64,000 nucleotides of DNA from an uncultured Holophagales bacterium (GTDB taxonomy: Bacteria > Acidobacteriota > Thermoanaerobaculia > Multivoradales > UBA5704): NCBI GenBank assembly GCA_963842525.1, contig CAWJGT010000019.1:224001-288000 (forward strand). Direction: 5' to 3'. The notes beneath the pieces are model-generated. The model did no database searches. It was given only the letters and a program-made list of their open reading frames with translations, and had not been told where the DNA came from. The first letter of the stretch is position 1. Each line of letters begins with the position of its first letter. A program made the translations under genes and the position numbers. Below, piece after piece: positions 1 through 55,695 of this stretch.

Positions 1-2043
1 CTCGAGCACAACACCGACCTGTTCAACGATGCCACGGCGTGGCGGATGTACGAGCACTGCGTGGCCATCCTGCGCGCCGGCGCGGAAGACCCGGACCGCC
101 GGGTCGGCGCCCTGCCGCTGCTCGCCGAGGCCGAGCGGCACCAGCTCCTGCGGGAGTGGAGCGAGCCCACCGGCTCAACCGAATGGAAGGGCCGCTGCGT
201 ACATCATCAGGTGGAGGAGCAGGCTGCTCGCACGCCTGGAAGGGTGGCGGTGATCGACGGCGAGCGGTCGCTGACCTACGCCGGGCTCGACGCCCGGGCC
301 AACCGCCTGGCGCACGGCCTGCGCCGGCGCGGGGTGGGGCCGGAGTCGCTGGTGGGCATCTGCGTCGAGCGTTCGCTGGAGATGCTGGTCGCCGCCCTGG
401 CGGTGGCCAAGGCGGGCGGCGCGCTGGTGGCGCTCGATCCGGCCTATCCGCGCGAGCGGCTGGCCACCATCATCGACGACGCCGGCCTCGCCGTGCTGCT
501 GACCCAGGAGGAGCTGCTCACCAGCTTCCCGGAGCACGAGCACATCGCACTCCTCTATGAGCGCGGGGCCGACCTGTTCCCGGAGGAGAGCGAGAGCACC
601 CCGGAGCGCGGGGTCGATCTCGACAATCCGATCTATGCCATCTACACCTCGGGCTCGACGGGCCAGCCGAAAGGGATCGTGGTCACCCACCGGGCCTTCT
701 CCAGCCTGATCGACTGGCAGCTCCGGGCGGCGGACCTGCGGCCGGGAGCGAAGACGGTGGCGCTCTCCACCTTCGGCTTCTGCGTCAGCTTCCAGGAGAT
801 GTTCTCCTGCTGGTGCTCGGGCGGCACCCTGGTGGTGGCCGACGAGATGACGCGGCGGGATGTCGGCGGTCTGGGCGCCTTCCTGGAGGAGCACGGGATC
901 GAGCGCCTGCACCTGCCGTTTGCCGCGCTCAAGCATCTGGCAGAGGCGGCGGACCGGGAGCGGCTGCCCGCTGGGCTGCGGGAGGTGATCACGGCGGGCG
1001 AGCAGCTCCAGGTCACGCCGGCGGTGCGGTCGCTCTTCGAGCGGCTGCCCGGGTGCGTCCTGTCGAACCAGTACGGGGCGTCGGAGACGCACGTCATCAG
1101 CGCCCTGACGCTCACCGGGGAGCCCGCGGCCTGGCCGGCCATCCCGCCGGTCGGGCGGCCGGTGGACCGGGTGCGGATCCACCTGCTCGCTCCAGGCCTC
1201 CAGCCGGTTCCGGTGGGCGTGGCGGGCGAGCTGTATGCAGGGGGCGTCTGCCTGCCGCGGTGTTATCTGAACGACCCTGTGCTGACGGCGCAGAAGCTGG
1301 TGCCCGATCCGTACGGGGCGGAGCCTGGAGCCCGCCTGTATCGCACGGGTGACGCGGCGCGCTACCTCTCCGGCGGCCGGATCGTGTATCATGGCCGCAT
1401 TGACACCCAGGTCAAGGTCCGGGGGTTCCGGATCGAATTGGGTGAGGTGGAGACGGTGCTGGCGCGCCACCCTCGGGTGCGCGACGCCGCGGTGGTAGCA
1501 AAGGCGGCCAAGGCGGACGGTCACCGGCTGGTGGCCTATGTAGTGGCCCATTCGGAGTCGGCGGATTTCGGTGAAATCCGCGCCTACCTCAAGCAGAAGC
1601 TCCCCGAGTTCATGGTTCCGGCGGCGTTCGTCGAGGTGTTGGCGCTACCGCTCAACGCCAACGGCAAGCTCGACCTGACGGCGTTACCCGAGCCGGGCGT
1701 GCAGGCCGCGCGAGCCTATGTGGCGCCGCGCACGGAGATCGAGCAGTTGCTGGTGAAGATCTACGCGGACCTCCTGAAGATCGAGAGAGTAGGGATCCAC
1801 GACAACTTCTTCGAGCTGGGCGGGCACTCCCTGCTGGGCACGCGGCTGATGGCGCAGATCCGGGAGACGGTCGGCATCGACCTCAGGGTGCGGATGCTCT
1901 TCGAGCTCCCGACGGTCGCGGAGATGGGGGAGGCGGTCGCGCAGGCGCTGATGGAGGAGACCGACGACGAGGCGCTGGCGGCGGTGCTGGCGGAGCTCGA
2001 GCGGGAAGAGATGTCCGCAGAGGTTTTGGAGGGGGCTGCATGA
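1..2043 (+). CDS. NRPS, 5'-truncated: end of C domain, then A (proline-clade, Asp235Cys) and T, with acidic C-terminal docking tail
   Basis: Frame 1 is open from base 1 ([19 protein letters not shown], the end of a C domain). A motifs [34 protein letters not shown] and NGKLD; T motif [12 protein letters not shown] at 2041-2043 overlaps the next ATG. Confidence 0.95.
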   Translation, partial: LEHNTDLFNDATAWRMYEHCVAILRAGAEDPDRRVGALPLLAEAERHQLLREWSEPTGSTEWKGRCVHHQVEEQAARTPGRVAVIDGERSLTYAGLDARANRLAHGLRRRGVGPESLVGICVERSLEMLVAALAVAKAGGALVALDPAYPRERLATIIDDAGLAVLLTQEELLTSFPEHEHIALLYERGADLFPEESESTPERGVDLDNPIYAIYTSGSTGQPKGIVVTHRAFSSLIDWQLRAADLRPGAKTVALSTFGFCVSFQEMFSCWCSGGTLVVADEMTRRDVGGLGAFLEEHGIERLHLPFAALKHLAEAADRERLPAGLREVITAGEQLQVTPAVRSLFERLPGCVLSNQYGASETHVISALTLTGEPAAWPAIPPVGRPVDRVRIHLLAPGLQPVPVGVAGELYAGGVCLPRCYLNDPVLTAQKLVPDPYGAEPGARLYRTGDAARYLSGGRIVYHGRIDTQVKVRGFRIELGEVETVLARHPRVRDAAVVAKAAKADGHRLVAYVVAHSESADFGEIRAYLKQKLPEFMVPAAFVEVLALPLNANGKLDLTALPEPGVQAARAYVAPRTEIEQLLVKIYADLLKIERVGIHDNFFELGGHSLLGTRLMAQIRETVGIDLRVRMLFELPTVAEMGEAVAQALMEETDDEALAAVLAELEREEMSAEVLEGAA

Positions 2044-5000
2044 ACGAGCGAGCCAGGGTCCTGGAGGGTCTGTCCACCGACCAGCGCCATGCGCTGCTCG
2101 AGCGGCTGCGGGAGAAGAAGCTCGCGCAGCGCGGGCCGGGCATCCGGCCGCGGCCGGCCGGTCTGCGCACCTTGCCGCTGTCTTTCGCCCAGGAGCGCCT
2201 CTGGTTCCTCGACCAGCTCGAGAAGGGGTCCGCCACCTACAACCTCCTGTTCGGGGTGCGCCTGACCGGCCGCCTCGACCGCCGTGCCCTGCAGCGCACC
2301 CTGGTCGAGCTGGTGCGCCGCCACGAGTCCCTGCGCACCACCTTCGGCCAGCGGGAGGGCCGGGCCTTCCAGACCATCGCGCCCTCGGCGGCGCCGCCCC
2401 TTCCGTGGATCGACGTCGCCGGTCTGCCGGAGGCCGCGGGCGCGGCGGAGCTGCTGCGCATCCTGCGCGACGAGGCGCTGCTGCCCTTCGACCTGGAGCG
2501 CGGCCCGCTGCTGCGCTGCAAGCTCCTCCGCTTCAGCCCCGAGGACCATGCGCTCGCCGTGGCGATGCACCACATCGTCTCCGACGGCTGGTCGATGGCG
2601 GTCTTCCTGCGCGAGATGTCGGACCTGTATGCCGCCTTTGCCGCCGGCCGGCCTTCGCCGCTGCCGGAGCCGGGGCTCCAGTACGCCGACTTCGCCGTCT
2701 GGCAGCGCGAGCACCTGAGCGGTGCGGCCCTCGACGCCGAGATCGCCTGGTGGCGGCAGCGGCTGGACGGGCTGCCGGTTCTCGAGCTGCCGGTCGACCG
2801 GCCGCGGCCGGCGCGGCAGAGCCACCGCGGCGAGTCGGTGCGGCTGACCCTGGACCCCGCCGTGACCGCGCGCATCTACGCGCTCGGGCATCGCGAGGGG
2901 GCCACCCCGTTCATGATCCTGCTTGCCGTCTGGAAGGCGCTGCTCCTCCGCACCACGGGGCAGACCGACTTCGCGGTGGGCTCCCCGGTGGCCAACCGCG
3001 AGCACGCCGAGATCGCGAACCTGATCGGGTTTTTCGTCAACACGCTGGTGCTGCGCACCGACCTGTCGGGCGGCCCCGGCTTCCGCGCGCTGCTCGGCCG
3101 GGTACGGGCGACGTCGATCGCCGCCTACGACCATGCGGAGCTGCCGTTCGAGAAGCTTGTGGAGCATCTGCAGCCCGAGCGCTCCGGGGGGCGCAATCCG
3201 CTCGTCCAGGTGATCTGCGTGATGCAGAACCATTCCTGGCCGGAGCTGCGGATCGGCGACGTCCAGCTCAAGCTCCTGGAATTCGGGACCCAGATCGCGA
3301 AGTTCAACCTGAGCCTGGGCTGGAGCGAGGAGGACGGCCGGCTCGAGGGCGGGCTGGAGTACGCCACCGACCTCTACGAAGCCGCGACCATCGAGCGCAT
3401 GCTGGGCCACTACCGGATGCTTCTCGACGGCGTGCTCGACGACCTGGAGACGGATGTCACGGAGCTCCCGCTGTTCGCCGCCGCCGAACGGCGGCAGCTC
3501 CTCGGCGAAGCGAGCGGGCCGGCGCATGACCGGCATGCCGGGATCGACGGCCGCTGCATCCACCACCGGATCGAGGAGCAAGCGGCGCGGACGCCCGAGG
3601 CGCCCGCCGTCGAGGACCTGACCTACCGGGAGCTCAACGCGCGCGCCAACCGGCTGGCGTGGTGGCTGCGCGCCCACGGGGTCGGCCCCGAGGCGCGGGT
3701 CGCCGTGCTCTTCGAGCGCTCGCCCGAGATGGTGGTGGCCGCGCTGGGAGCGTTCAAGGCCGGGGCGGCCTATGTGCCGCTCGATCCCACCTACCCGGCG
3801 GAGCGCCTCGGCTTCCTCGCCACCGATTCGCAGGCAGGCGTGGACAGGCCGGTGATCGTGACCCGCGAGGATCTGGTCAGGCTGCTGCCGGAGGAGACGC
3901 AGCAACGGGCGCGGATCATCCGCCTGGACGCCGACGCAGAGGATCTGGCCCGCCAGGAGGCCGGCAATCCGCCGTCCTCCGTCACGCCCGAGAACCTCTG
4001 CTACATCATCTACACCTCGGGATCGACCGGCCGGCCCAAAGGCTCGGCGCTCCCGCATGCCACCCTCTCCCGCCTGGTGGACTGGCACCGCGAGGCGTTC
4101 GGCGTGACGCCGGCCGACCGTGCGAGCTGGATCGCGAGCCCGGCCTTCGACCCCGCGGTGTGGGAGGTCTGGTCGTGCCTCTGCTGTGGCGCCTGGCTGC
4201 GCATCCCGGACGAGCGCGTGCGCTCCGAGCCCGCGCGGCTGGCGGCCTGGCTCGCGGACGAGGGCATCACCTTCGCCTACATGCCGACGCCGCTCGCCGA
4301 GGCGGTGTTCCCCGGGCCCTGGCCGGAGGACCTGCGGCTGCGGGCGCTCACCCTCGGCGGCGACCGCCTGGTGCGCCGGCCTCCCGCCGAGGCGACGTTC
4401 GAGGTCTACAACCTCTACGGGCCGGCCGAGTGCACCGTGAACTCGACCTTCGGCCTGGTCGAGCCGCACGGGACGGACCTGCCCCATCTGGGCACCCCGG
4501 TCGCGGGGGTACGCGTCTACGTGGCCGATCCCTGGGGAAGCCTCGCTCCGGCCGGCATTCCCGGCGAGATCTGGGTCGGCGGCGCCGGGATCGGCCGTGG
4601 TTATCTCGACCGCCCGGTCTGGACGGCCGAGCGCTTCGTGCCCGACGGATTCGGTGATGGAATCGGAGAGAGGCTCTATCGCACCGGCGACCTGGGGCGG
4701 CGCCGGCCGGGCGGGCCCCTCGAATTCCTCGGCCGCATCGACCACCAGGTCAAGATCCGCGGCATCCGGGTGGAGCTGGGCGAGGTCGAGGCGATCCTGC
4801 AGGAGCATCCCGAGGTCGGCACCTGTGTGGTGATTGCACGGCAGGACCGGCCGGGGGACAAGGCCCTGGTGGCGTATCTGACGCGGGCCGAGGGAGTCGC
4901 AGAGGGACCGGATCCGGGCGAGCTCCGCCGCCATCTTGCGACGCGTCTGCCGGCGGCCATGGTGCCCTCTGCGTTCGTCGTGCTCGACGCCCTGCCGCTC

Positions 5001-8000
5001 AACCCCAACGGCAAGGTGGACCGCCGCGCGTTGGCGCGCCTGGAGCCGCCGGCCGACGACGCCCGCGCCTCGTCTGCCGGCGAGCACGTGCCGCCGCGCA
5101 CCGCCACGGAGGAGATCCTCGCCGCCATCTGGGCCGACCTCCTGGGGGTCGAGCGCGTGGGCGTCCACGACAGCTTCTTCGATCTGGGCGGGCACTCGCT
5201 GCTCGGCGTCCAGGTCCTGTCGCGCCTGCGCACCCTGTTCCGGGTCGAGCTGTCCGTCCGCACCCTGTTCGAGGAGCCGACGCTGGAGGGCTTCGCGGCC
5301 CAGGTGGACGCGGCGCTCCGCGCGAGCGCCGGCACCGCGGCGCCGCCGCTTGAGCGGGTGCCCCGTCAGGATCGCCAGAGAGTAGTGCTCTCCTTCGCCC
5401 AGGAGCGGCTCTGGTTCCTGGAGCAGCTCGAGCCGGGGACGGCCTTCTACAACATCCCTGCGGCCACGCGCCTCGCCGGGCCGTTGCGGGTGGACGTCCT
5501 GCGCGGCGGTTTCGCGGAGCTGGTGCGCCGTCACGAGTCGCTGCGTACCACCTTCGGCGAAGAGCACGGCCAGGCCTTCCAGGTCATCGCCCCGGCCGCT
5601 GCCGCGGAAATGCCGTTGATCGACCTGGCCTCGCTGCCGCAGGTACCGGACAACCCGGTGCGTGGCGCCGAGCTGCTGCGCCTGGCCACCGCCGAGGTGC
5701 GGCGCTCGTTCGACCTGCAGCGCGGCCCACTCGTCCGCACGACCCTCTTCCGGGTGACGCCGGAGGACCATGTCCTGGTGTCGACCATGCACCACATCGT
5801 CTCCGACGGCTGGTCGATGACCGTCCTCGTCCGCGAGATGGCGGAGCTCTACGGCGCTTTCGCCGCGGGGCTCCCGTCCCCGCTTCCCGAGCTGCCCATC
5901 CAGTACGCCGACTATGCGGTCTGGCAGCGCAGCTATCTCCAGGGGGTGGTGCTGGAGGCCGAGATCGAATGGTGGCGTGCGCGCCTGGCCGGGGTGCCGG
6001 CGCTTCAGCTCCCCACCGACCGGCCGCGTCCGCCGGTCGAGACCTTCCGCGGCCGGCAGCGCCCCTCGGGGCTGTCGGCCGGGCTCACCGGCGCTCTCCA
6101 GGAGCTGAGCCGCGGCGAGGGCGTGAGCCTCTTCATGACCCTGCTCGCCGCCTTCCAGACGATGCTCTTCCGCTACAGCGGGCAGACCGACCTGGCGGTG
6201 GGCTCGCCGATCGCCAACCGTAACCGCAGCGAGACCGAAGAGGTGATCGGCTTCTTCGCCAACACCCTGGTTTTGCGCACCGACCTGTCCGGTGATCCGA
6301 GCTTCCGCGAGTTGCTGGCGCGGGTGCGGGAGGTGACCCTGGGGGCCTACGCGCACGAGAACCTGCCGTTCGAAAAGATCGTCATGGAGCTCCAGCCGGA
6401 CCGCGACATGAGCCGCAACCCGCTCTTCCAGGCCATGTGCGTGCTGCAGAACCAGCCGTTCAGGGCGGCGCCGCTGCGCGACCTGGAGATCTCGGGGCTG
6501 AGCCTCGATACGGCGACGGCGAAGTTCGACCTGACCCTCTTCTGGCAGGAGACGGGGGGCGTGCTCAGCGCTCTCCTGGAGCACAACACCGACCTGTTCG
6601 ACGACGCCACGGCATGGCGGATGTACGAGCACTGCGTGGCGATCCTGCGTGCCGGCGTCGAGGACCCGGACCAGCGGGTTGGCGCTCTGCCGCTGCTCGC
6701 CGAGGCCGAGCGGCATCAGCTCCTGCGCGAGTGGAGCGGACCCGCAAGCTCGACAGATTGGGCCGGCCGCTGCGTCCATCACCAGGTGGAGGAGCAGGTG
6801 GCGCGCACACCCGGCGGGGTGGCGGTGATCGACGGCGGACGGTCGCTGACCTACGCCGAGCTCCACGCCCGCGCCAACCGCCTGGCGCACGGCCTGCGCC
6901 GGCACGGTGTGGGGCCGGAGTCGCTGGTGGGCATCTGCGTCGAGCGCTCGCTGGAGATGGTCGTGGCGGGCCTGGCGGTGGCGAAGGCGGGCGGCGCCCT
7001 GGTGGCGCTCGATCCGGCCTATCCGCGCGAGCGGCTGGCCACCATCATCGATGACGCGGGCCTCGCCGTGCTGCTGACCCAGGAGGCGCTGCTGGAGAGC
7101 TTCCCCCAGCATGAGCACATCGCCCTCCTCTATGAGCAGGGGGCCGACCTGTTCCCGGAGGAGAGCACGGCGAATCCGGACAGCGGGGTCGACCTCGATC
7201 ATCCCATCTATGCGATCTACACCTCGGGCTCGACGGGGCAGCCGAAGGGGATCGTGGTGACTCACCGCGCGTTCGCCAGCCTGCTCGCCTGGCAACTGGA
7301 TGCGCCGGGCCTGCGTCCGGGGGCGCGGACGGTGGCGCTCTCCACCTTCGGCTTCTGCGTCAGCTTTCAGGAGATGCTCTCCTCCTGGTGCTCGGGCGGC
7401 ACGCTGGTGGTGGCCGACGAGATGACGCGGCGCGACATCCTCGGGCTGGCCTCGTTCCTGGAGGCGTACGGTATCGAGCGGCTGCACCTGCCGTTCGCCG
7501 CGCTCAAGCACCTGGCCGAGGCCTTCTCGGCCCAGACGGCGGGCGGGGGCCTGCTGCCGTCGCGTCTGACCGAGGTGATCACGGCGGGCGAGCAGCTCCA
7601 GGTCACGCCGGCGGTGCGATTGCTGTTCGAGCGCCTGCCCGGATGCGCGCTGTCGAACCAGTACGGTGCGTCGGAGACGCACGTGATCAGCGCTCTGACG
7701 CTCCCGGGCGCGCCCGGGGAGTGGCCGGCGATCCCGCCGGTGGGGCGGCCGGTGGCGCGGGTGCGCATCCACCTGCTCGATGCGGGCCTCCAGCCGGTGC
7801 CGGTCGGTGTGGCCGGCGAGCTCTTCGCGGGAGGCGTCTGCCCGCCGCGATGCTATCTGAACGATCCGGTGCTGACGGCGCAGAAGCTGGTGCCCGATCC
7901 GTACAGCGCGGAGCCCGGGGCGCGTCTCTACCGCACGGGCGACGCGGCGCGCTACCTGGCCGACGGCCGCATCGAGTACTACGGCCGGATCGACACCCAG

Positions 8001-8657
8001 GTGAAGATCCGCGGCTTCCGGATCGAGCTGGGCGAGGTCGAGACCGTGCTGGCTCGCCACCCGCAGGTACGTGACGCCGCCGTTGTCGCCAGGGCGGCCA
8101 AGACGGCAAAGCCGGGCGGGGCGGACGGGCACCGACTCGTCGCCTATGTGGTGCCTCAAACGGAGCCGGCGGATTTCGACGAGATCCGGGCCTACCTCAA
8201 GCAGAAGCTCCCCGAGTTCATGGTGCCGGCGGCGTTCGTCGAGATGCGGGAGCTGCCGCTCAACGCCAACGGCAAGCTCGACCAGGCGGCGCTGCCCGAG
8301 CCGGACCTCCAGACCGTTTCGCGCGCCTATGTGCCGGCGCGCACGGAGGTCGAGCAGCTTCTGGCGGAGATCTACGGGGACCTCCTGAAGGTCGAGAGGG
8401 TGGGGATCCACGACAACTTCTTCGAGCTGGGCGGGCACTCCCTGCTCGGCACACGGCTGATGGCGCAGGTCCGGGAGACCTTCGGCGTCGATCTCAAGGT
8501 GCGGACGCTGTTCGAGATGCCCACGGTTGCGGAGATGTCCGTGGCGATCGCGCAGTCGCTGATGGAGGGGACCGACGACGAGGCGCTGGCGGCGGTGCTG
8601 GCCGAGCTCGAGCAGGACGAGATGCACGCGGAGGCCCTGGAAGGGGAACCGGCATGA
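2040..8657 (+). CDS. Bimodular NRPS C-A-T-C-A-T (2205 aa)
   Basis: ATGA overlap with GGAGGGGG RBS at 2028-2035. Two LCL-like C domains ([21 protein letters not shown]), two A domains (hand-read codes DPWYTGLVNK and CVQHIAQVIK) and two GGHSL T domains. Confidence 0.95.
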   Translation: MNERARVLEGLSTDQRHALLERLREKKLAQRGPGIRPRPAGLRTLPLSFAQERLWFLDQLEKGSATYNLLFGVRLTGRLDRRALQRTLVELVRRHESLRTTFGQREGRAFQTIAPSAAPPLPWIDVAGLPEAAGAAELLRILRDEALLPFDLERGPLLRCKLLRFSPEDHALAVAMHHIVSDGWSMAVFLREMSDLYAAFAAGRPSPLPEPGLQYADFAVWQREHLSGAALDAEIAWWRQRLDGLPVLELPVDRPRPARQSHRGESVRLTLDPAVTARIYALGHREGATPFMILLAVWKALLLRTTGQTDFAVGSPVANREHAEIANLIGFFVNTLVLRTDLSGGPGFRALLGRVRATSIAAYDHAELPFEKLVEHLQPERSGGRNPLVQVICVMQNHSWPELRIGDVQLKLLEFGTQIAKFNLSLGWSEEDGRLEGGLEYATDLYEAATIERMLGHYRMLLDGVLDDLETDVTELPLFAAAERRQLLGEASGPAHDRHAGIDGRCIHHRIEEQAARTPEAPAVEDLTYRELNARANRLAWWLRAHGVGPEARVAVLFERSPEMVVAALGAFKAGAAYVPLDPTYPAERLGFLATDSQAGVDRPVIVTREDLVRLLPEETQQRARIIRLDADAEDLARQEAGNPPSSVTPENLCYIIYTSGSTGRPKGSALPHATLSRLVDWHREAFGVTPADRASWIASPAFDPAVWEVWSCLCCGAWLRIPDERVRSEPARLAAWLADEGITFAYMPTPLAEAVFPGPWPEDLRLRALTLGGDRLVRRPPAEATFEVYNLYGPAECTVNSTFGLVEPHGTDLPHLGTPVAGVRVYVADPWGSLAPAGIPGEIWVGGAGIGRGYLDRPVWTAERFVPDGFGDGIGERLYRTGDLGRRRPGGPLEFLGRIDHQVKIRGIRVELGEVEAILQEHPEVGTCVVIARQDRPGDKALVAYLTRAEGVAEGPDPGELRRHLATRLPAAMVPSAFVVLDALPLNPNGKVDRRALARLEPPADDARASSAGEHVPPRTATEEILAAIWADLLGVERVGVHDSFFDLGGHSLLGVQVLSRLRTLFRVELSVRTLFEEPTLEGFAAQVDAALRASAGTAAPPLERVPRQDRQRVVLSFAQERLWFLEQLEPGTAFYNIPAATRLAGPLRVDVLRGGFAELVRRHESLRTTFGEEHGQAFQVIAPAAAAEMPLIDLASLPQVPDNPVRGAELLRLATAEVRRSFDLQRGPLVRTTLFRVTPEDHVLVSTMHHIVSDGWSMTVLVREMAELYGAFAAGLPSPLPELPIQYADYAVWQRSYLQGVVLEAEIEWWRARLAGVPALQLPTDRPRPPVETFRGRQRPSGLSAGLTGALQELSRGEGVSLFMTLLAAFQTMLFRYSGQTDLAVGSPIANRNRSETEEVIGFFANTLVLRTDLSGDPSFRELLARVREVTLGAYAHENLPFEKIVMELQPDRDMSRNPLFQAMCVLQNQPFRAAPLRDLEISGLSLDTATAKFDLTLFWQETGGVLSALLEHNTDLFDDATAWRMYEHCVAILRAGVEDPDQRVGALPLLAEAERHQLLREWSGPASSTDWAGRCVHHQVEEQVARTPGGVAVIDGGRSLTYAELHARANRLAHGLRRHGVGPESLVGICVERSLEMVVAGLAVAKAGGALVALDPAYPRERLATIIDDAGLAVLLTQEALLESFPQHEHIALLYEQGADLFPEESTANPDSGVDLDHPIYAIYTSGSTGQPKGIVVTHRAFASLLAWQLDAPGLRPGARTVALSTFGFCVSFQEMLSSWCSGGTLVVADEMTRRDILGLASFLEAYGIERLHLPFAALKHLAEAFSAQTAGGGLLPSRLTEVITAGEQLQVTPAVRLLFERLPGCALSNQYGASETHVISALTLPGAPGEWPAIPPVGRPVARVRIHLLDAGLQPVPVGVAGELFAGGVCPPRCYLNDPVLTAQKLVPDPYSAEPGARLYRTGDAARYLADGRIEYYGRIDTQVKIRGFRIELGEVETVLARHPQVRDAAVVARAAKTAKPGGADGHRLVAYVVPQTEPADFDEIRAYLKQKLPEFMVPAAFVEMRELPLNANGKLDQAALPEPDLQTVSRAYVPARTEVEQLLAEIYGDLLKVERVGIHDNFFELGGHSLLGTRLMAQVRETFGVDLKVRTLFEMPTVAEMSVAIAQSLMEGTDDEALAAVLAELEQDEMHAEALEGEPA
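5380..8620 (+). repeat. Intragenic duplicated C-A(X)-T terminal module (other copies at 1-2010, partial, and ~15270-18480)
   Basis: Long near-identical DNA stretches. For example GAGCACAACACCGACCTGTTC...ATGTACGAGCACTGCGTGGC occurs at ~4, ~6579 and ~16471, with its C part also at ~13258. All three modules end in TDDEALAAV. Confidence 0.9.
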
Positions 8658-11600
8658 TGGAGAGAGCGAAGGTCCTGGCGGACCTGCCGGCCGGCAAGCG
8701 CGAGGCGCTGCTGCACCTGCTGCGGGAGCGGAAGCTCGCCCAGCGGCGGCCGGAGATCCGGCCCCGCCCGGCGGAGCTCGTCCGCGTGCCGCTGTCCTTC
8801 TCCCAGGAGCGTCTCTGGTTCCTGGAGCAGCTCGAACGCGGGACCGCCACCTACAACCTCCCATACTGCGTACACCTGGCGGGACGCCTCGACCTGGACG
8901 CCCTGCGGCGCACCCTGGCGGAGGTGGTGCGCCGGCACGAGTCGCTGCGCACCACCTTCGGCCAGAGCGAAGGCAGGCCCTTCCAGGCCGTGGGATGCCC
9001 CTGGGCCCCCGCACTGCCGCTGATCGACCTCTCCGCGGTCACCCCCGTCGCCGATATCGCCGACATCGCCAATCACTCCGCCGCGGTGTACACAGCGGAG
9101 CTGCGGCGCCTGTTCGCGCTGCAGGCATGGCAGCCCTTCGATCTGGAGCATGGACCGCTGCTGCGTTGCCAGCTCTTCCGCCTCGGGCCGGAGGACCACG
9201 CCTTCGCCCTGACCATGCACCACATCGTCTCCGACGGCTGGTCCATGACCGTCTTCCTGCGCGAGATCTCGGCGGTCTACAGCGCGTTCTGCGCCGGCCG
9301 GCCCTCGCCGCTGCCGGAGCCGCAGATCCAGTACCCCGACTTCGCCGTCTGGCAGCGGCAGCACCTGAGCGGCGCGGCTCTCGACGCCGCGCTCTCCTGG
9401 TGGCGCGAGCGGCTGGCCGGCGTGCCGGCGCTCGAGCTGCCCACCGACCGGCCGCGGCCGCCCGTCCAGAGCCATCGCGGCGCGGGGTTGCTGCAGACGC
9501 TCGATCCCGCGGTCACGGGCCTCCTGCGCGAGCTCGGCAACCGGCAGGGGGCGACGCCGTTCATGGTCCTGCTGGCTCTCTGGCAGGTGCTGCTCCTCCG
9601 TTACAGCGGCCAGGACGATTTCGCGGTGGGGACCCCGGTGGCCAACCGCGACCACTTCGAGGTCGCGGACCTGATCGGATTCTTCGTCAACACCCTGGCG
9701 CTGCGCACCCGCCTGGCGGGCGGTATCGGCTTCCTCGAGCTCCTCGGCCGGGTGCGCCAGGTGGCCGTCGAGGCCTACGACCACGCCGAGCTGCCGTTCG
9801 AGAAGCTCGTCGAGCATCTCCAGCCCGAGCGGTCGGCGGACCGCAACCCGCTCGTCCAGGTGTTCTGCATGATGCAGACCCAGTCGTGGCCGGACCTCCG
9901 CCTCGGCGATGTCCTGCTCTCCCCGATGGATCTCGGCACCGGAACCTCCAAGTTCGAGCTGAGCCTGGGCTGGACCGAGAACAAGGGGTGCTTCCTCGGC
10001 GCCCTCAACTACAGCACCAACCTGTTCGACCGGGCCACCGCCGAACGCATGCTGCGCCACTACGTGACGCTGGTCGGCTCCGTGCTGGCCGATCCCTACC
10101 GGAGTGTGACGGAGCTCTCTCCTCGACGACGCCGAGCGCCGCGCGCTCCTCGCCGAGGCGGCCGGACCTGCCCTCGATACGACGGCCGGCCGGTGCGTCC
10201 ACCACCGCGTCGAGGAGCACGCGGCGTGTGCTCCCGAGGCTCCCGCGGTGGAGGACCTGACCTACCGCGAGCTCAACGAGCGCGCCAACCGGCTGGCCCG
10301 GTGGCTGCGCTCCCAGAGCATCGGTCCCGAGGCGCGGGTCGGCGTGCTCTTCGAGCGCTCGCCCGAGATGGTGGTGGCCGCGCTGGGTGTGCTCAAGTCG
10401 GGAGCCGCGTACGTGCCGCTCGATCCCTCCTATCCGGCGGACCGTCTCGGGTTCATCCTCGCCGATTCGCAGATGGGAGTGGAGCGGCCCCTGCTGGTGA
10501 CGCGCGAGGGTCTGGTCGGGTTGCTGCCGAAGACATCGGAAGACACCGCGCGCCGGGCGCGGATCGTCTGTCTGGACGCCGACGAGGAGGAGCTGGCGCG
10601 GCAGGACGCCGGGAACCCGCCGGCCCTGGCCGGGCCGGACAACCTGGCTTACGTGATGTACACCTCCGGCTCGACGGGCAGGCCCAAGGGCTCGGCCGTC
10701 ACTCACGCCTGCCTCGCCAACCTGGTGGACTGGCACCGGGAGACGTTCCGCGTAACCCCGGCCGACCGTACGACCCAGGTCGCGAATCCGGCCTTCGATC
10801 CGGTGGTCTGGGAGCTCTGGTCGTGCCTCTCCTGCGGGGCCTGGCTGCGGATCCCGGAAGAGGGTGTGCGCTCCGATCCCGCGCGCTTGGTCGATTGGCT
10901 GGCCGCCGAAGAGATCACCATGAGCTATCTCCCCACGCCCCTGGCGGAGGCGGCGCTGGCTGCCCCATGGCCGGTGGAGATGCGCCTGCGGACGCTCTTC
11001 ACGGGCGGCGACCGCCTGATCCGCCGGCCTCCCGCGGGGGCGGCGTACGAGATGATCAACTGCTACGGGCCGGCGGAGTGCACGGTGATTTCCACGGTGA
11101 GCTGCGTCGAGCCCCCGGGGCAGGGGCAGTTACCGGGGCTGCCGTCCATCGGAACACCCGTCTCCTGCGCTCGGGTCTATCTGGTGGACCTCTGGGGGAA
11201 CCTGGCCCCGGCCGGCGTGCCCGGAGAGGTCTGGATCGGCGGCCGTGGGACAGGGCGGGGCTACCTGGGCCGGCCGGACTGGACCGCCGAGCGCTTCGTG
11301 CCGGACCCGTTTGGCGGATGGAGGGGAGAGCGGTTGTACCGTACCGGCGATCTGGCGCGGCGCCGGCCGGGGGGAGCTCGAGTTCCTCGGGAGGATCGAC
11401 CATCAGGTCAAGGTGCGCGGTATCCGCATCGAGCTGGGAGAGATCGAGGCGGGTCTGCTGGAGCATCCGGAGGTCGGCGGCTGCGCGGTGATCGCGCGGC
11501 AGGACCGGCCTGGGGAGCGGAGCCTGGTGGCCTATGTGGTTCCTTCCGGGGAGGCGGCGGGCGCCGAGTCCGTTTCCGTGGCTCCGAGCCCCGCCGAGCT

Positions 11601-14600
11601 CCGCCGCTTCCTGGCGCAGCGGCTCCCGGCGGCCATGGTGCCCTCCGGCTTCGTGATGCTCGAGGCCCTCCCCTTGAGCCCCAATGGCAAGGTCGACCGC
11701 CGCGCTCTAGCGCGCCGGGAGCCTCCCACCGACGCGGCGCGGGCCTCGGCCGCCTGCGAGCACGTGCCGCCGCGCACCCCCACCCAGGAGATCCTCGCAG
11801 CGGTCTGGTCGGAGCTCCTCGGGGCCGAGCGCGTCGGCGCCAGCGACAGCTTCTTCGAGCTGGGCGGCCACTCCCTGCTCGGCGTCCAGGTCCTGTCGCG
11901 CCTGCGCACCCTGCTGCGGGTCGAGCTGCCGGTCCGCACCCTGTTCGAGGAGCCGACGCTCGAGGGCTTCGCGGCCCGAGTGGACATGGCGCTCCGAGAA
12001 GGAGCTGCGACCGCGGCGCCTCCGCTCCAGCAGGTCCCACGGGAAGAGCACCAAGGGAGATCACCGCTCTCCTTCGCCCAGGAGCGGCTCTGGTTCCTCG
12101 AGCGGCTGCAGCCGGGCACGGCCTTCTACAACATCCCTTCCGCCACGCGCTTCGCGGGGCCGCTGCGGGTCGACGTCCTGCGCCGCGGCTTCGCGGAGCT
12201 GGTGCGCCGCCACGAGTCGCTGCGCACCACCTTCGGCGAGGAGAGCGGCCGGGCCTTCCAGGCCGTCGCGCCCGCTGGCTCCGCCGAGATGCCGTTGATC
12301 GATCTGGCCTCTCTGCCGCAGGCACCGGACAACCCGCTGCGTGAAGCCGAGCTGCTGCGCTGCGCCACCGGCGAGGCGAGGCGCCCCTTCGACCTCCAGC
12401 GCGGCCCGCTCGTCCGCGCGCCGCTCTTCCGGCTCGCGCCGCAGGACCATGTCCTGGTGGCGACCATGCACCACATCGTCTCCGACGGCTGGTCCATGAC
12501 CGTCCTGATCCGCGAGATGGCGACGCTCTACGAGGCGTTCTGCGACGGTCTTCCGTCGCCCCTGCCCGCGCTGCCCGTCCAGTACGCCGACTACGCCGCC
12601 TGGCAGCGCGGCTGGCTCCAGGGAGAGGTGCTTGCGGCCGAGGTCGCGTGGTGGCGCGAGCGCCTGGCCGGGCTGGAGGTCCTCCAGCTCCCGACCGACC
12701 GCCCGCGCCCGCCGGTCGAGACCTTCCGCGGCCGGCAGCGCACCGCCTGGGTCTCGGCCGAGCTCACCCGCGGCCTCCACGAGCTGAGCCGGCGCGAGGG
12801 GGTCAGCCTTTTCATGACCCTGCTCGCCGCCTTCCAGACGCTGCTCTTCCGCTACAGCGGGCAGACCGACCTGCCGGTGGGCTCGCCCATCGCCAACCGC
12901 AACCGCAGCGAGACCGAAGGGGTTATTGGTTTCTTCGTCAACACCCTGGTGCTGCGCACCGACCTGTCCGGCGAGCCGACGTTCCGCGAGCTGCTGGCAC
13001 GGGTGCGGGAGGTGACCCTGGGGGCCTACGCCCACGAGAGCCTCCCCTTCGAGAAGGTCGTCCTGGAGCTCCAGCCGGAGCGCGACATGAGCCGCAACCC
13101 GCTCTTCCAGGTGATGTGCGTGCTGCAGAACCAGCCGCTCAAGGCGACGCCGCTGCGCGGCCTGGAGATCTCGGGGCTCGGCCTCGATACGGCGACGGCG
13201 AAGTTCGACCTGACCCTGGCCTGGAGCGAGGCGGGGGGCGCCCTCGGCGCGCTGCTGGAGCACAACACCGACCTGTTCGACGACGCCACGGCCTGGCGGA
13301 TGTACGAGCACTGCGTCGCCCTCCTCCGCGCCGGCGTGGAGGATCCGGACCGCCGGGTCGGCGCCCTGCCGCTCCTCGGCGAGGCCGAGCGCCGCCAGCT
13401 CCTCGCCGAGGCGGCAGGGCCAAGCTGGAGTGGGGAGGGCGGATGCGTCCACCACCGGGTGGAGGAGCATGCGGCGCGTACCCCCGAATCCCCGGCCGTG
13501 GAAGACCTCACCTACCGGGATCTCAACGAGCGCGCCAACCGGCTGGCCGGGTGGCTGCGCGCGCACGGGGTCGGTCCCGAGGCGCGGGTCGCGGTGCTGC
13601 TGGAGCGCTCGCCGGAGATCGTGGTGGCCGCGCTGGGCGTGCTCAAGGCGGGAGCGGCGTACGTGCCGCTCGACCCCTCCTATCCGGCGGAGCGTCTGGC
13701 CTTCCTCCTGGCCGACTCGCAGGCGGGCCCCAGGGGGATAGACCGGACGGACCGGCCGGTGGTGGTGACGCTCGAGGGATTGACCCGGCTCCTGCCTGAT
13801 CAGACGGCGCGGATCGTCCGCCTTGACGCCGACGCCGGCGAGCTGGCCCGCTACGGCCCCGGCAACCCGCCGCCGTTCGCCGCACCGGATAACCTGGCCT
13901 ACGTGGTCTACACCTCGGGCTCGACCGGCCAGCCCAAGGGCGCAATGGTCTCTCATGCCAATCTCGCTCACCTGGTCGACTGGCACCGGGAGGCGTTCCA
14001 CCTGACTCCGGCCGACCGCACGACCCAGGTCGCCAACCCGGCCTTTGATGCCGCGGTCTGGGAGGTCTGGTCGTGCCTCGCCTGCGGGGCCTGGATGCGC
14101 ATCCCGGAGGAGGCCGTGCGCGCCGACCCCGCGCGTCTGGTCGCCTGGTTGGCCGCCGCGGAGATCACCGTCAGCTTCCTCCCCACGCCGCTGGCCGAAG
14201 CCGCGCTCGCCGCGGTCATCCCGGAATGGCCGGCGGGGATGCGCCTGCGGGCTCTTCTCACCGGAGGCGACCGCCTGGTCCGCCGGCCGCCTGCAGGGGC
14301 GGCCTTCGAAATGATCAACTGCTACGGGCCCGCCGAGGCGGCGGTGGTCTCCACCTGGGGCCGCCTGGCGCCTGATGCGGCAGGAATACCGTCGATCGGT
14401 CTGCCGCTCCCTCGCGCGCGGGTCCATCTCGTCGACCCCTGGGGGGACCTGGCTCCGGCCGGCGTGCCCGGGGAGATCTGGATCGGCGGACGCGGGCTCG
14501 GGCGCGGCTACGTGGGCCGGCCGGACTGGACCGCCGAGCGTTTCATGCCGGACCCGCTCGGCGGCGGACAGGGCGAGAGGCTCTACCGCACCGGCGACCT

Positions 14601-17600
14601 GGCGCGGCGCCGGCCGGGCGGGGAGATCGAGTTCCTCGGGCGCATCGACCAGCAGGTCAAGGTCCGCGGCGTCCGCATCGAGCTGGGAGAGGTGGAGGCG
14701 GCTCTCCTGGAGCATCCGGAGGTCGGCGGCTGTGCCGTGATCCTGCGGCAGGATCGGCCGGGGGAGCGCGGCCTGGTCGCCTACGTGGTGCCGGCGAGCG
14801 CCTCCCTGGTCTCACCCTCCGACCTCCGCCGCTTCCTGGCAGAGAGGCTGCCGGTCGCCCTGGTGCCCTCGGCCTTCGTGGCGCTCGAAGCCCTGCCGCT
14901 CAACCCGAACGGCAAAGTGGACCGCCGCGCCCTGGCGCGTCTGGAGGCGCCCGCCGGCTCCACGTCCGCCGCCGAGCACGTACCGCCGCGCACCGTCACG
15001 GAAGAGATCGTCGCGGCCATCTGGGCCGACCTCCTGGGGGCCGAGCGCGTGGGTATCGACGACGACTTCTTCGCGCTGGGCGGCCACTCGCTGCTGGGGA
15101 TCCAGGTCCTGTCGCGCCTGCGCACCGCCTTCGGCGTGGAGCTGCCGGTGCGCGCGCTCTTCGAGGAGCCGGTGCTCGAGGGCTTCTCGGCTCATATCGA
15201 CGCGACGTTGCGCGACAGCGCCGCCGTTGCGGCGCCACCCCTCGAAAGGACGCCGCGCACGGGGCGGCTGCCGCTCTCCTTCGCCCAGGAGCGGCTCTGG
15301 TTCCTCGAGCAGCTCGAGCCGGGCACGGCCTTCTACAACATTCCCTCCGTCACCCGCTTCCGCGGGCCGCTGCGGGTCGACGTCCTGCGCCGCGGCTTCG
15401 CGGAGATCATGCGCCGCCACGAGTCGCTGCGCACCACCTTCGGCGAGGAGCACGGCCAGGCCTTCCAGGTCATCGTGTCCGAGGTCCCGTCGGAGATGCC
15501 GGTGATCGATCTGGCGGCGCTTCCCGGCACGGCGCGCCTGTCGCGCCTGTCGCAGGATACCGAGCTGCTGCGCCTCGCCACCGGCGAGGTCCGGAGCCCG
15601 TTCGATCTGCAGCGCGGCCGGCTCGTCCGTGCGCTGCTCATCCGCGTGGCGCCGCAGGACCACGTCCTGGTCGCGACCATGCACCACATCATCTCCGATG
15701 GCTGGTCGATGACCGTCCTGATCCGCGAGATGGGCACGCTCTACGAGGCCTTCTCCGGCGAGCGCCCGTCCCCCCTGCCCGAGCTGCCCGTCCAGTACGC
15801 CGACTATGCCGCCTGGCAGCGCGGCTGTCTCCAGGGGGAGGTGCTCGCGGCCGAGGTCGAGTGGTGGCGGGCGCGTCTGACCGGGGTGACAGCGCTCCAG
15901 CTCCCGACCGACCGGCCGCGTCCGCCGGTCGAGACCTTCCGCGGCCGGCAGCGCTCCGTCCGGCTCCCGGCCGAGCTCGCCGGAGCTCTCCACGCGCTGA
16001 GCCGCGGCGAAGGGGTGAGCCTCTTCATGACCCTGCTCGCCGCCTTCCAGACGACGCTCTTCCGCTACAGCGGCCAGACCGATCTGGCGGTGGGCTCGCC
16101 GATCGCCAACCGCAACCGCAGCGAGACCGAAGGGGTCATCGGCTTCTTCGCCAACACCCTGGTGCTACGCACCAACCTGTCCGGCGATCCGACCTTTCGC
16201 GAGGTGCTGGCGCGGGTGCGTGAGGTGACTCTCGGCGCCTACGCCCACGAAAACCTCCCCTTCGAAAAGGTTGTGATGGAGCTCCAGCCGGAGCGCGACA
16301 TGAGCCGCAATCCGCTGTTCCAGGTGATGTGCGTCCTCCAGAACCAGCCGTGGAAGGCGGCGCCGTTGCGCGACCTGGAGATCTCGGGGCTCAGCCTCGA
16401 CACGGCGACGGCGAAGTTCGACCTGACCTTGTTCTGGCAGGAGGTGGGAGGCACCCTCGGCGGACTGCTGGAGCACAACACCGACCTGTTCGACGACGCC
16501 ACGGCGTGGCGGATGTACGAGCACTGCGTGGCCATCCTGCGCGCCGGCGCGCAGGACCCGGACCAGCGGGTCGGCGCTCTGCCGCTGCTCGCCGAGGCCG
16601 AGCGGCACCAGCTCCTGCGCGAGTGGAGCGGGCCGGCCAGCGCGCCAGACTGGGTGGGCCGCTGCATCCATCACCAGGTCGAGGAGCAGGTGGCGCGTAC
16701 GCCCGGGGCCACAGCCGTGATCGACGGCGAGCGGTCGCTGACCTACGCCGAGCTCAACGCCCGGGCCAACCGCTTGGCCCATGGCCTGCGCCGGCGCGGG
16801 GTGGGGCCGGAGTCGTTGGTGGGCATCTGCGTCGAGCGCTCCCTGGAGATGGTGGTGGCAGGCCTGGCGGTGGCCAAAGCGGGCGGCGCGCTGGTCGCGC
16901 TAGACCCGGCCTATCCGCGCGAGCGGCTGGCCACGATCATCGACGACGCGGGCCTGACTGTGCTGTTGACCCAGGAGGCGCTGCTGGAGAGCTTCCCGCA
17001 GCATGCGCACACTGCACTCCTGTATGAGCGGGGGGCCGACCTGTTCCCGGAGGAGAACACGGCCGATCCAGACAGCGGCGTCGATCTGGACAACCCGATC
17101 TATGCCATCTACACGTCGGGCTCGACGGGCCAGCCGAAGGGGATCGTGGTCACCCACCGGGCTTTCTCCAGCCTGCTCGCCTGGCAACTCAACGCGCCAG
17201 GGCTGCGTCCGGGGACGCGGACGGTGGCGTTGTCGACCTTCGGCTTCTGCGTCAGCTTCCAGGAGATGTTCTCCTCCTGGTGCTCGGGCGGCATGCTGGT
17301 GGTGGCCGACGAGATGACACGGCGCGACATCATCGGGCTGGGCGCCTTCCTGGAGGAATACGGCATCGAGCGGTTGCACCTGCCGTTCGCCGCCCTCAAG
17401 CACCTGGCCGAAGCCTTCTCTGGTCAGAACCGACTGCCGTCGCGTCTGACGGAGGTGATCACGGCGGGCGAACAGCTCCAGGTCACGCCGGCGGTCCGGT
17501 CGCTGTTCGAGCGGCTGCCCGGGTGCGCGCTGTCGAACCAGTATGGGGCGTCGGAGACGCACGTGATCAGCGCTCTGACGCTGGCGGGCGCGCCCGCGGA

Positions 17601-18505
17601 GTGGCCGGCGATCCCGCCGGTGGGGCGGCCGGTGGCGCGGGTGCGCATCCACCTGCTCGATCCGGGCCTCCAGCCGGTGCCGGTGTGTGTGGCCGGTGAT
17701 CTCTATGCGGGCGGCGTCTGCCCACCTCGGTGCTATCTGAACGATCCGGTGCTGACGGCGCAGAAGCTGGTGCCCGATCCGTACGGCCTGGAGCCGGGCT
17801 CGCGCCTCTATCGCACCGGCGACGCGGCGCGCCATCTGGCCGACGGCAGCATCGAGTACCACGGCCGGATCGACACCCAGGTGAAGATCCGTGGCTTCCG
17901 GATCGAGCTCGGCGAGGTCGAGACCGTTCTGGCCCGCCAGCCGCGGGTGCGTGATGCTGCCGTGGTGGCAAAGCCGGGCGGTGCGGACGGGCACCGGCTC
18001 GTCGCCTACGTGGTGCCGCAGACGGAGCCGGCGAATTTCGACGAAATCCGGACCTACCTCAAGCAGACGTTGCCCGAGTTCATGGTGCCGTCGGCGTTCG
18101 TCGAGATGCGGGAGCTGCCGCTGAACGCCAACGGCAAGCTCGACCAGGCGGCGCTGCCCGAGCCGGACCCTCAGTTCCTGACGCGGGTCTACGTGGCCCC
18201 GCGCACCCCGGTCGAGGAGACGCTGGCCGGCCTCTACGCGAGCCTGTTGAAGGTCGAGAAGGTGGGGATCTACGACAACTTCTTCGAGCTGGGGGGGCAC
18301 TCCCTGCTCGGCACGCGCCTGATGGCCCAGGTGCGCGAGGTCTTCGGCGTCGAGATCAAGGTGCGGACGCTCTTCGAGGCGCCCACTGTCGCCGATCTGG
18401 CCGTGGCGGTCGCGCGGAAGCTCATGGACGACACCGACGACGAGGCCCTGGCGGCGGTATTCGCCGAGATCGAGCGGGAAGAGATTCTCGCGAGGAGCGA
18501 GGGCC

Positions 18506-18513
<8 letters not shown>
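8654..18513 (+). CDS. Trimodular NRPS C-A-T-C-A-T-C-A-T (about 3290 aa), interrupted by two apparent frameshifts (~10120, ~11372)
   Basis: Homology passes from ORF 8654..11491 (C domain, up to VTELS) to ORF 10248..12344 (A domain, up to RRRPG) to ORF 11245..18513 (from [13 protein letters not shown] on). A codes DPWYFGCVIK, DAWFLGCVVK and CVQHIAQVIK. ATGA overlap with the upstream gene. Confidence 0.9.

Positions 18514-55691
<37,178 letters not shown>

Positions 55692-55695
<4 letters not shown>

Follow-up and report, generated by a model that had tools for sequence, protein, structure and literature searches.

Three proline-type adenylation domains with cysteine at the Asp235 position in a nonribosomal peptide synthetase gene line of an uncultured Holophagales bacterium

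The adenylation (A) domains of nonribosomal peptide synthetases (NRPSs) that activate proline have a motif A4 of the form FDVSFQE and a specificity code of the type DVQ(F/L/Y)IAHVVK. The Asp of this motif is Asp235 of GrsA (PMC11253843). According to review and primary papers (PMC11253843, PMC13643306, PMC10949194), it binds the alpha-amino group, whereas the carboxyl group is bound by Lys517. In A domains for alpha-keto acids, Asp235 is replaced by an aliphatic residue, while the other code residues are those for the parent amino acid (PMC10949194, in excerpt), and a non-acidic residue at 235 is given as the rule for keto-acid domains (PMC10949194 and PMC13643306, in excerpt). The A5 carbonyl between Gly and the next residue, which is Met in StsA (Gly414-Met415) and Pro in amino-acid domains, touches the alpha-substituent, and replacing this Pro by Met or Ala in LgrA gave higher keto-acid activation (excerpts of PMC11253843). 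The same excerpts report Gly or Ala at 235 in hydroxy-acid A domains. Here, we describe three A domains with Cys at this position, encoded in a stretch of 64,000 nucleotides (72% G+C; hereafter the window) from an uncultured Holophagales bacterium (GenBank assembly GCA_963842525.1, contig CAWJGT010000019.1; G000:C19:224001-288000 in our coordinates, i.e. host genome, contig, positions). We use the label Z for the clade of Cys235 proline-type A domains with the motif FGFCVSFQE. The host genome comprises 9.95 Mb in 34 contigs and contains more than 150 A domains.

A scan for motif A3 identified 15 A domains in the window, three of which (Z1 to Z3) carry FGFCVSFQE. The raw DNA around position 781 reads ttc-ggc-ttc-TGC-gtc-agc-ttc-cag-gag, and raw sequence, translations and computed coordinates agree on the three TGC codons that a first-pass annotation of this DNA had pointed out (Table 1). 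This Cys aligns with the A4 FDxS Asp of both LgrA A domains (phmmer against solved structures, E ~1e-218). From an alignment of 243 A-domain segments of the host genome, the nine Acore code positions are CVQHIAQVI in all three copies, and with the A10 Lys as tenth residue, present in each, they give the code CVQHIAQVIK, as had been proposed. The A3 P-loop, A5 Glu, A7 YRTGD, A8 hinge, A10 NGKLD and carrier GGHSL are also intact in the three copies, in agreement with the annotation's remarks on P-loop, YRTGD and catalytic Lys. For Z1, the Pfam E-values are 1e-74 (AMP-binding, PF00501), 9e-16 (AMP-binding_C, PF13193) and 3.4e-15 (PP-binding). The Pfam matches, the carrier domain and the intact core motifs place these domains among the NRPS A domains of the ANL superfamily.

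Five FGFCVSFQE sites were found in the host genome: the three of the window, an intact copy on contig C34 and a broken fragment on contig C14. The four intact copies all use TGC, with a synonymous divergence (dS) of 0.33-0.73 and a ratio of nonsynonymous to synonymous divergence (dN/dS) of 0.16-0.26 (0.33-0.46 and 0.16-0.24, respectively, among the three window copies). Such a low dN/dS at a sizeable dS indicates old paralogues under purifying selection. In comparison, residue 235 of the 229 other full-length A domains of the host genome is Asp in 220, Asn in 5, Ala in 2 and Ile in 1, with a further residue in the last domain, and Cys in none. Moreover, two base changes are needed to go from GAC (Asp) to TGC (Cys). 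Cys235 is neither chance nor a sequencing error; on the latter point the first-pass annotation was right.

The five Asn235 domains are located at C3 (-)1563209, C9 (+)1375638, C9 (+)1572294, C20 (+)40967 and C34 (-)695862, with codes that are otherwise canonical Gly-, Leu-, Ala- or Gln-type ones (NILQLGLVW, NILQLGVIW, NAWLLGHVV, NLFNAALTY and NAWQFGLID). They retain the A5 Pro and may represent a second route to loss of the amine anchor, or dead domains. As for the C14 fragment (G000:C14:99714-100487, minus strand), it carries FGFCVSFQE and is 72% identical over residues 46-304; it is broken by one TGA, with an open frame of only 254 residues.

When 185,579 species genomes were scanned with a protein pattern, 79 loci were obtained. 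About the 30 best of them belong to Acidobacteriota metagenome-assembled genomes (MAGs; Thermoanaerobaculia, Holophagales, Blastocatellia) and one Chloroflexia MAG, and all of them carry FGFCVS(F/Y)QE; the nearest Asp-bearing relatives, with FDV(S/A)FQE, show about 52-56% identity. Using a back-translated DNA pattern, exact FGFCVSFQE was found in 38 stretches of the same genomes: judged by title, 37 MAG records (nearly all Acidobacteriota, with one Longimicrobium and two Cloacimonadota-labelled bins) and one isolate, Lentzea sp. NPDC034063. The same DNA pattern occurs in 26 stretches among 241 million metagenome records. A word-indexed protein search with the Lentzea domain as query listed 120 relatives: three have FGFC, all with NQYGASE in motif A5, and the other 117 are of the FDVSFQE type or did not match the motif filter, none having NQYGASE. 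In addition, a profile search of 1.84 billion representatives, ranked by summed score so that giant multi-A proteins dominate, showed the Z motif in 2 of the 150 proteins listed. No Z-type domain was present among the 40 matches listed from a plasmid collection, the best of which is 50.6% identical.

A FastTree phylogeny was built from 95 rows (34 Z, 11 sister domains, 40 Pro-type database domains and 10 outgroup A domains), the Pro-type database rows being a random pick that left out 39 of an initial 134 rows. All 34 Z rows form one clade (Shimodaira-Hasegawa-like support 99) nested among FDVSFQE-type domains. The successive Pro-type outgroups to Z have supports of 82-98, and the immediate sister node is unsupported (18). 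The tree shows a single origin of Z within the proline-type A domains.

Cys235 is not the only change specific to Z. In 20 alignment columns, a residue shared by 93% or more of the Z domains (n=33) is seen in no more than 10% of the sister Pro-type domains (n=11). Motif A2, AYVPLDP in Pro-type and other domains, is A.VALDP in Z, a Pro to Ala change at a position that has Pro in 213 and Ala in none of the 229 other host A domains. The A4 segment S(P/L)SFD has become TFGFC, and a varied residue seven positions past position 278 has become a Lys that is likewise found in none of the 229. In motif A5, NxYGP(S/T)E is replaced by NQYGASE. The changes in A6 (YL.RP to YLNDP; Asp in 21/229) and in A10 (LTPSGKVD to LNANGKLD) are not unusual among the same 229 domains. 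The A2 and A5 changes from Pro to Ala had not been noted by the first-pass annotation.

From an alignment of 32 Z members with 46-85% identity to Z1, Cys235, V236, Q239, A301, Q322 and the A5 Ala (NQYGASE) are present in all 32. Position 278 is His in 27, Tyr in 4 and Phe in 1; position 299 is Ile in 29; position 331 is Val in 22 and Ile in 10; and V330 is invariant or nearly so across the clade. Among 61 public stretches with the Z peptide in frame, motif A5 reads Gly-Ala in 49, Gly-Ser in 5 and Gly-Thr in 3, four being unreadable; Gly-Pro is found in none of the 57 readable copies. Conversely, the 11 sister Pro-type domains compared all have Asp235. The remodelled A6 motif GGVC[LP]PRCYL, which had been reported for the three window copies, is indeed read there (GGVCLPRCYL once, in Z1, and a GGVCPPRCYL-type variant with Leu to Pro twice), but across the clade it holds only in part, with the first Cys in 26/32, the Pro in 19/32 and the second Cys in 11/32. 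A metal or disulphide site formed by the Cys cluster near A4 and A6 was also considered and rejected, as Cys235 alone is invariant across the clade.

The host genome contains 10 canonical DVQF..A(H/Q)V domains alongside the five Z copies, and at locus L038, a Z module stands beside an FDVAFQE module in one protein. Z and Pro-type domains thus coexist in one genome and even in one protein, which argues for two separate classes being maintained that are not interchangeable.

We scored the module context of 37 Z occurrences. The condensation (C) domain motif HHxxxDG lies 517-547 residues upstream in 29 of them, five are cut or broken, two have HHxxxDA and one gave no match. In 35 cases, a carrier motif is seen downstream, between +348 and +396, the remaining two being fragments. 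Past the carrier, the protein ends (9 cases), continues into a C domain (23 cases; HHxxxDG at +541 to +592 and the next A3 near +1030), meets a stop near +600 (2 cases) or is open without a match (1 case). By these motifs, the readable Z copies are ordinary elongation modules consisting of C, A and carrier (T) domains, hereafter C-A-T. No ketoreductase (KR) was detected by Pfam in the Z modules of the window or of Lentzea, and the motif spacing leaves no room for one. Since Z is placed mid-chain and must both accept and donate the chain, its monomer needs a nucleophile; monomers without any are therefore excluded. Incorporation at least three times, as had also been put forward, holds for this gene cluster, which has three Z modules. 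The active sites of the C domains upstream of Z are indistinguishable from those upstream of Pro-type modules.

In Lentzea, the Z module is preceded by a protein with ketosynthase (KS), acyltransferase (AT), KR and acyl carrier protein domains; after it come a C domain that stands alone, a dioxygenase of the TauD family and a C-A-T-thioesterase protein. Other products of this region are a starter resembling fatty-acyl-AMP ligases, an A domain with a luciferase-like monooxygenase inserted in it, a radical-SAM protein of 662 residues and, at a greater distance, a TfuA/YcaO pair.

Upstream of the cluster in the host genome lie genes for two VWA-domain proteins and a 1629-residue NAD-glutamate dehydrogenase. 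The flanks of 12 related loci were covered by a scan of 19 open reading frames (ORFs), i.e. 16 of 29 candidate non-NRPS ORFs plus 3 others; the 13 candidates left out are mostly short ORFs, plus those of loci L042-L044 (L043 having no Z domain). The 19 ORFs encode transporters, regulators, housekeeping proteins and one Rieske/FMN-reductase. Probably, Z uses a common metabolite, or the synthesis of its monomer is encoded at another place in the genome.

Whereas the features of the sequence, the degree to which they are conserved, the origin of the clade and the context of its modules are observed, we infer catalytic activity, a loss of amine binding and the substrate class of Z. In the proposed scenario, a Pro-activating ancestor would have retained its small Pro-type side-chain pocket and lost the anchor for a protonated alpha-amine, through the change of Asp235 to Cys and of the A5 Gly-Pro to Gly-Ala (in a few relatives, to Gly-Ser or Gly-Thr). 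Residues of A2, A6 and A10 that are nearly universal would have been altered alongside, and a Lys gained seven residues past position 278. Because both determinants of the alpha-substituent (235 and A5) are changed and the Pro-type pocket is kept, an acid of about the size of Pro, its alpha-substituent being neutral or weakly basic, is suggested. Once adenylated by Z, this small carboxylic acid would be loaded onto the carrier of the same module; the C domain upstream, a standard one, would link the chain to the nucleophile of the monomer, and the next C domain would hand the chain on. We give about an even chance to Z being an active A domain that selects a small Pro-sized acid whose alpha-substituent is not a protonated amine.

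Taken together, a hydroxy acid (ester bond) and a weakly basic or imine-type cyclic imino acid make up this even chance. An alpha-hydroxy acid is the best single guess, itself a tentative one, and would put three ester (depsi) links into the product. A cyclic imino acid that stems from proline metabolism and is weakly basic or of the imine type comes next, as a slightly more hesitant guess. The narrower proposal that Z directly loads a cyclic imine of proline (delta-1-pyrroline-2-carboxylate or delta-1-pyrroline-5-carboxylate) is rather unlikely. Delta-1-pyrroline-2-carboxylate is the "keto-acid equivalent" of Pro, and as both pyrroline carboxylates are ordinary metabolites, no cluster-encoded supply would be needed. 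The upstream C domain would then acylate the imine or enamine nitrogen, leaving a dehydroproline or hemiaminal residue. If true, such loading would add a class of NRPS substrates not described before and lead directly to residues of dehydro-imino acids; it would be used three times for this product and recurrently for the peptides of soil Acidobacteriota.

Several observations weigh against the selection of an acid without a protonated amine. No KR, hydroxy-acid dehydrogenase or other precursor gene was found in the Z modules or at the cluster edges, and no recurrent precursor enzyme appears among the 19 flanking ORFs of the 12 related loci. Furthermore, the C domains upstream of Z and of Pro-type modules share the same HHI(V/I)SDGWS site. 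The A5 Pro is also absent from Asp235-bearing Thr-type (NMYGITE) and Cys-type (GGATE) domains of the host; since such domains exist, loss of the A5 Pro alone is no proof of a non-amine substrate. The informative point is the strict coupling of Cys235 and A5 inside a Pro-type lineage. In addition, the three frame changes of the gene line described below may mean that it is decaying, or may be assembly indel errors. A characterised Cys235 precedent was not found in the open-access full texts searched (without supplements). Finally, McyG, with Val at 235, is reported to accept L-Phe, and the Asp is called "not strictly required" (PMC11253843).

In a first alternative, Z still activates L-Pro or a close analogue with a normal secondary amine (hydroxy- or methyl-proline, azetidine carboxylate), with the amine held by backbone carbonyls alone and Cys235 as a tolerated quirk of the lineage. 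Its side-chain pocket is nearly that of the DVQFVAQV paralogues in the host genome, a canonical Pro-type module is missing from the cluster, a role that Z could fill, and clustered precursor genes are lacking; McyG shows that Asp235 can be dispensable (PMC11253843, in excerpt). However, Asp is found in all the sister Pro-type domains compared, and among the 120 relatives listed, Cys in an FDVSFQE-type motif occurs only in the Z clade. The change from Asp to Cys, which takes two base substitutions, is without exception in the clade and in every case accompanied by changes in A5, A2 and other core motifs, and canonical Pro-type domains coexist with Z in the host genome and, at L038, in the same protein. 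We hold L-Pro or a close analogue to be a possible substrate, although a doubtful one. The Pro-sized monomer without a basic alpha-amine proposed by the first-pass annotation therefore fits the Pro-type ancestry, the pocket and the lost Asp235 and A5 Gly-Pro, but does not displace L-Pro altogether. A Z domain that is dead or purely structural, its carrier being skipped or loaded in trans, seems very improbable: the key amine anchor is gone, the line has frame changes and the C14 copy is broken, but all catalytic motifs are intact in three copies and conserved clade-wide, the copies are under purifying selection and the clade persists across phyla.

The remaining alternatives concern other monomers. 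If Z were an alpha-keto-acid domain, as in the depsipeptide modules of cereulide, valinomycin and cryptophycin type, the non-acidic residue 235 and the loss of the A5 Pro would be explained, as these are the two positions named for keto-acid selection. Against this stand the lack of a KR in or beside any Z module and of room for one, an A5 with Gly-Ala and not Gly-Met, the nesting of Z among Pro-type amino-acid domains and the divergent, CoA-ligase-like CesB domain, which does not have the Z motifs. Moreover, an unreduced keto acid offers no nucleophile to the upstream C domain, and we regard this assignment as highly unlikely. An N-N or N-O heterocycle such as piperazate, one of the options named by the first-pass annotation, with KtzI/KtzT-like N-N enzymes as possible precursor genes, would combine a Pro-like shape with reduced amine basicity, and a strong Lys/Orn N-monooxygenase (336.7 bits) is indeed encoded downstream of the Z-containing genes of Lentzea. 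Its gene, however, adjoins a separate three-module NRPS with a thioesterase, the typical arrangement for hydroxamate siderophores. For a KtzI-like ornithine N-hydroxylase in the host genome, there are only weak and partial PF13434 matches (32.6 bits, positions 89-216, and 24.8 bits), no search having been made for a KtzT-like enzyme; a control search gave PF13434 matches in 12 of 14 genomes, so the weak host matches are non-specific. A gene of this kind was seen neither at the edges of the cluster nor in the flanks covered. These results make a KtzI-type route to piperazate unlikely here, and loading of an N-N or N-O heterocycle by Z is very doubtful.

The window is nearly all occupied by one hybrid NRPS/polyketide synthase (PKS) gene line on the plus strand, spanning G000:C19:216081 to ~295402 (Table 1); gene 1 starts upstream of the window. 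Each window Z module forms the C-terminal end of its protein, with an acidic tail, and the protein that follows opens with a helical N-terminus and then a C domain. By tblastn with paralogous modules, three frame changes were located in the line, at ~10092-10117 (between C and A), 11371-11375 (inside an A domain) and 40696-40740 (inside an AT domain), and all three Z domains are in intact frames. Comparison of A3 motifs and codes showed no further Z domain at 18506..63254.

Table 1. Coordinates of the NRPS/PKS gene line, of the Z domains and of side features (window positions unless a locus is given)
Feature	Position	Strand	Details
NRPS gene 1, 3' end	1..2043	+	start upstream at G000:C19:216081; order C-A-T-C-A-T-C-A(Z1)-T
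Gene 1 portion in window			C-domain end, A domain Z1, carrier domain, acidic docking-like tail
Z1 Pfam spans in gene 1 portion			AMP-binding aa 72-423, AMP-binding_C 482-556, PP-binding 583-645
Z1 motif A2 Ala	430..432	+	in place of near-universal Pro (ALVALDP vs AYVPxDP)
Z1 Cys codon TGC at Asp235 position	781..783	+	motif A4 FGFCVSFQE
Z1 motif A5 NQYGASE	1066..1086	+	Ala codon 1078-1080 replaces Pro of NxYGP(S/T)E
Z1 remodelled motif A6 GGVCLPRCYL	1240..1269	+	
Z1 A10 catalytic Lys	1666..1668	+	Lys517 equivalent, in LNANGKLD
NRPS gene 2	2040..8657	+	C-A(code DPWMTGLVN)-T-C-A(Z2)-T
A domain Z2	6696..8345	+	Cys codon (TGC) 7356-7358, A5 Ala 7668-7670, A10 Lys 8274-8276
NRPS gene 3	8654..18513	+	C-A-T-C-A-T-C-A(Z3)-T, spread over three frames by two frame changes
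A domain Z3	16588..18237	+	Cys codon (TGC) 17248-17250, A5 Ala 17548-17550, A10 Lys 18136-18138
Remainder of hybrid NRPS/PKS line	18506..63254	+	more C-A-T modules, three KS-AT units, two sulfotransferase domains
Sulfotransfer_3 domain	31463-32110	+	97.8 bits
Sulfotransfer_3 domain	45177-45820	+	97.5 bits
Last NRPS gene of the line	L094:669-8402 (G000:C19:287669-295402)		C-A-T-C-A(methyltransferase insert)-T
Lentzea side genes	L102:6175-12555, L102:17013-18998, L101:12871-15479		

Other features of the line can be mentioned. The A domain with its A3 motif at 20498 has A4 LAHDPLQRD (code DPRHLVLRA) and leads into a KS-AT PKS module; this type of A domain recurs after Z modules in several related loci (L016, L020, L026, L029, L030, L035 and L036). 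Pro is found at position 236 in the A domains with A3 at 4014 and 10662 in the window, and at G000:C19:218229 and 221433 upstream of it, with the codes DPWMTGLVN, DPWLFGCVI, DPRMTGLVN and DPWMVGLVN. In the host genome, these four code strings occur in this cluster only, other DP- codes being present elsewhere, and these four domains usually stand directly upstream of a Z module. Both Sulfotransfer_3 (ST) domains follow the carrier of a Thr-type module (code DFWNIGMVH) and precede the next C domain (A-T-ST-C). In this place, they could O-sulfate the tethered Thr, and the sulfate would either stay as a final decoration or serve as leaving group in a dehydration; the family is also present in an unrelated metagenome NRPS, P0061. 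The last NRPS gene has no thioesterase or reductase, and 3' of it only small ORFs without Pfam matches were found.

A domains without Asp235 are already known as a kind. The strings CVQHIAQVIK, CVQHIAQV, FCVSFQE, D235C, Asp235Cys and Cys235 do not occur in the open-access full texts searched, supplements being outside this scope, and the Pro-derived Cys235 variant with coupled core-motif changes, concentrated in biosynthetically rich Acidobacteriota MAGs, appears to be undescribed. For the many NRPS clusters that are silent in uncultured soil bacteria, product structures are predicted, and then synthesised, on the basis of specificity codes, and a conserved Cys clade at a position usually treated as an invariant Asp falls outside that logic. 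For each Z module, the products predicted for these Acidobacteriota clusters are probably wrong in the residue and possibly also in the type of bond. If Z loads a hydroxy acid or a ring of the imine type, an ordinary lineage of amino-acid A domains would have given up the selection of amino acids in the course of natural evolution, through a small set of defined changes, and such a switch would be directly useful for engineering. The question is testable, as there is a cultured carrier, Lentzea sp. NPDC034063 (locus L040, with the Z homologue at L040:7892-11377).

Among the described systems, the Pro-activating A domains are the closest to Z, which is nested among them with 45-55% identity and the same C-A-T layout. 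The two share V236, Q239, I299, A301, V330 and the AGEQL and SETHV motifs, and differ in that Z has Cys235, Gly-Ala in A5, Ala in A2, mostly His278 (27/32), the new Lys and altered A6 and A10. We know of no natural bacterial Pro-type A domain for hydroxy acids. Like Z, the alpha-keto-acid domains (StsA/CesA/CesB, CrpD-M2, Dol15D KAL) have lost both the acidic residue 235 and the Pro after Gly in A5, but Z has no KR, has Gly-Ala in place of Gly-Met and is a mid-chain acceptor without reduction. Kinship with this family was compared on CesB only: its first domain is highly divergent from Z, CoA-ligase-like, aligns poorly and has WGMSE in A5, which points to a different evolutionary origin, the divergence being too high to tell if the A2, A6 and A10 changes of Z are shared. 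On these grounds, Z is not a member of the keto-acid domain family. The hydroxy-acid A domains, by their description in the excerpts of a review (PMC11253843), resemble Z in a small neutral residue in place of Asp235, in the lack of a KR and in a monomer that keeps its nucleophile, whereas they have Gly or Ala where Z has Cys and probably come from other lineages. Finally, the A domain of McyG shares with Z a natural non-acidic residue (Val) at position 235 (PMC11253843, in excerpt), but it belongs to a loading module for phenylpropanoid starters and has a large aromatic pocket, whereas Z belongs to elongation modules and has a Pro-type pocket.

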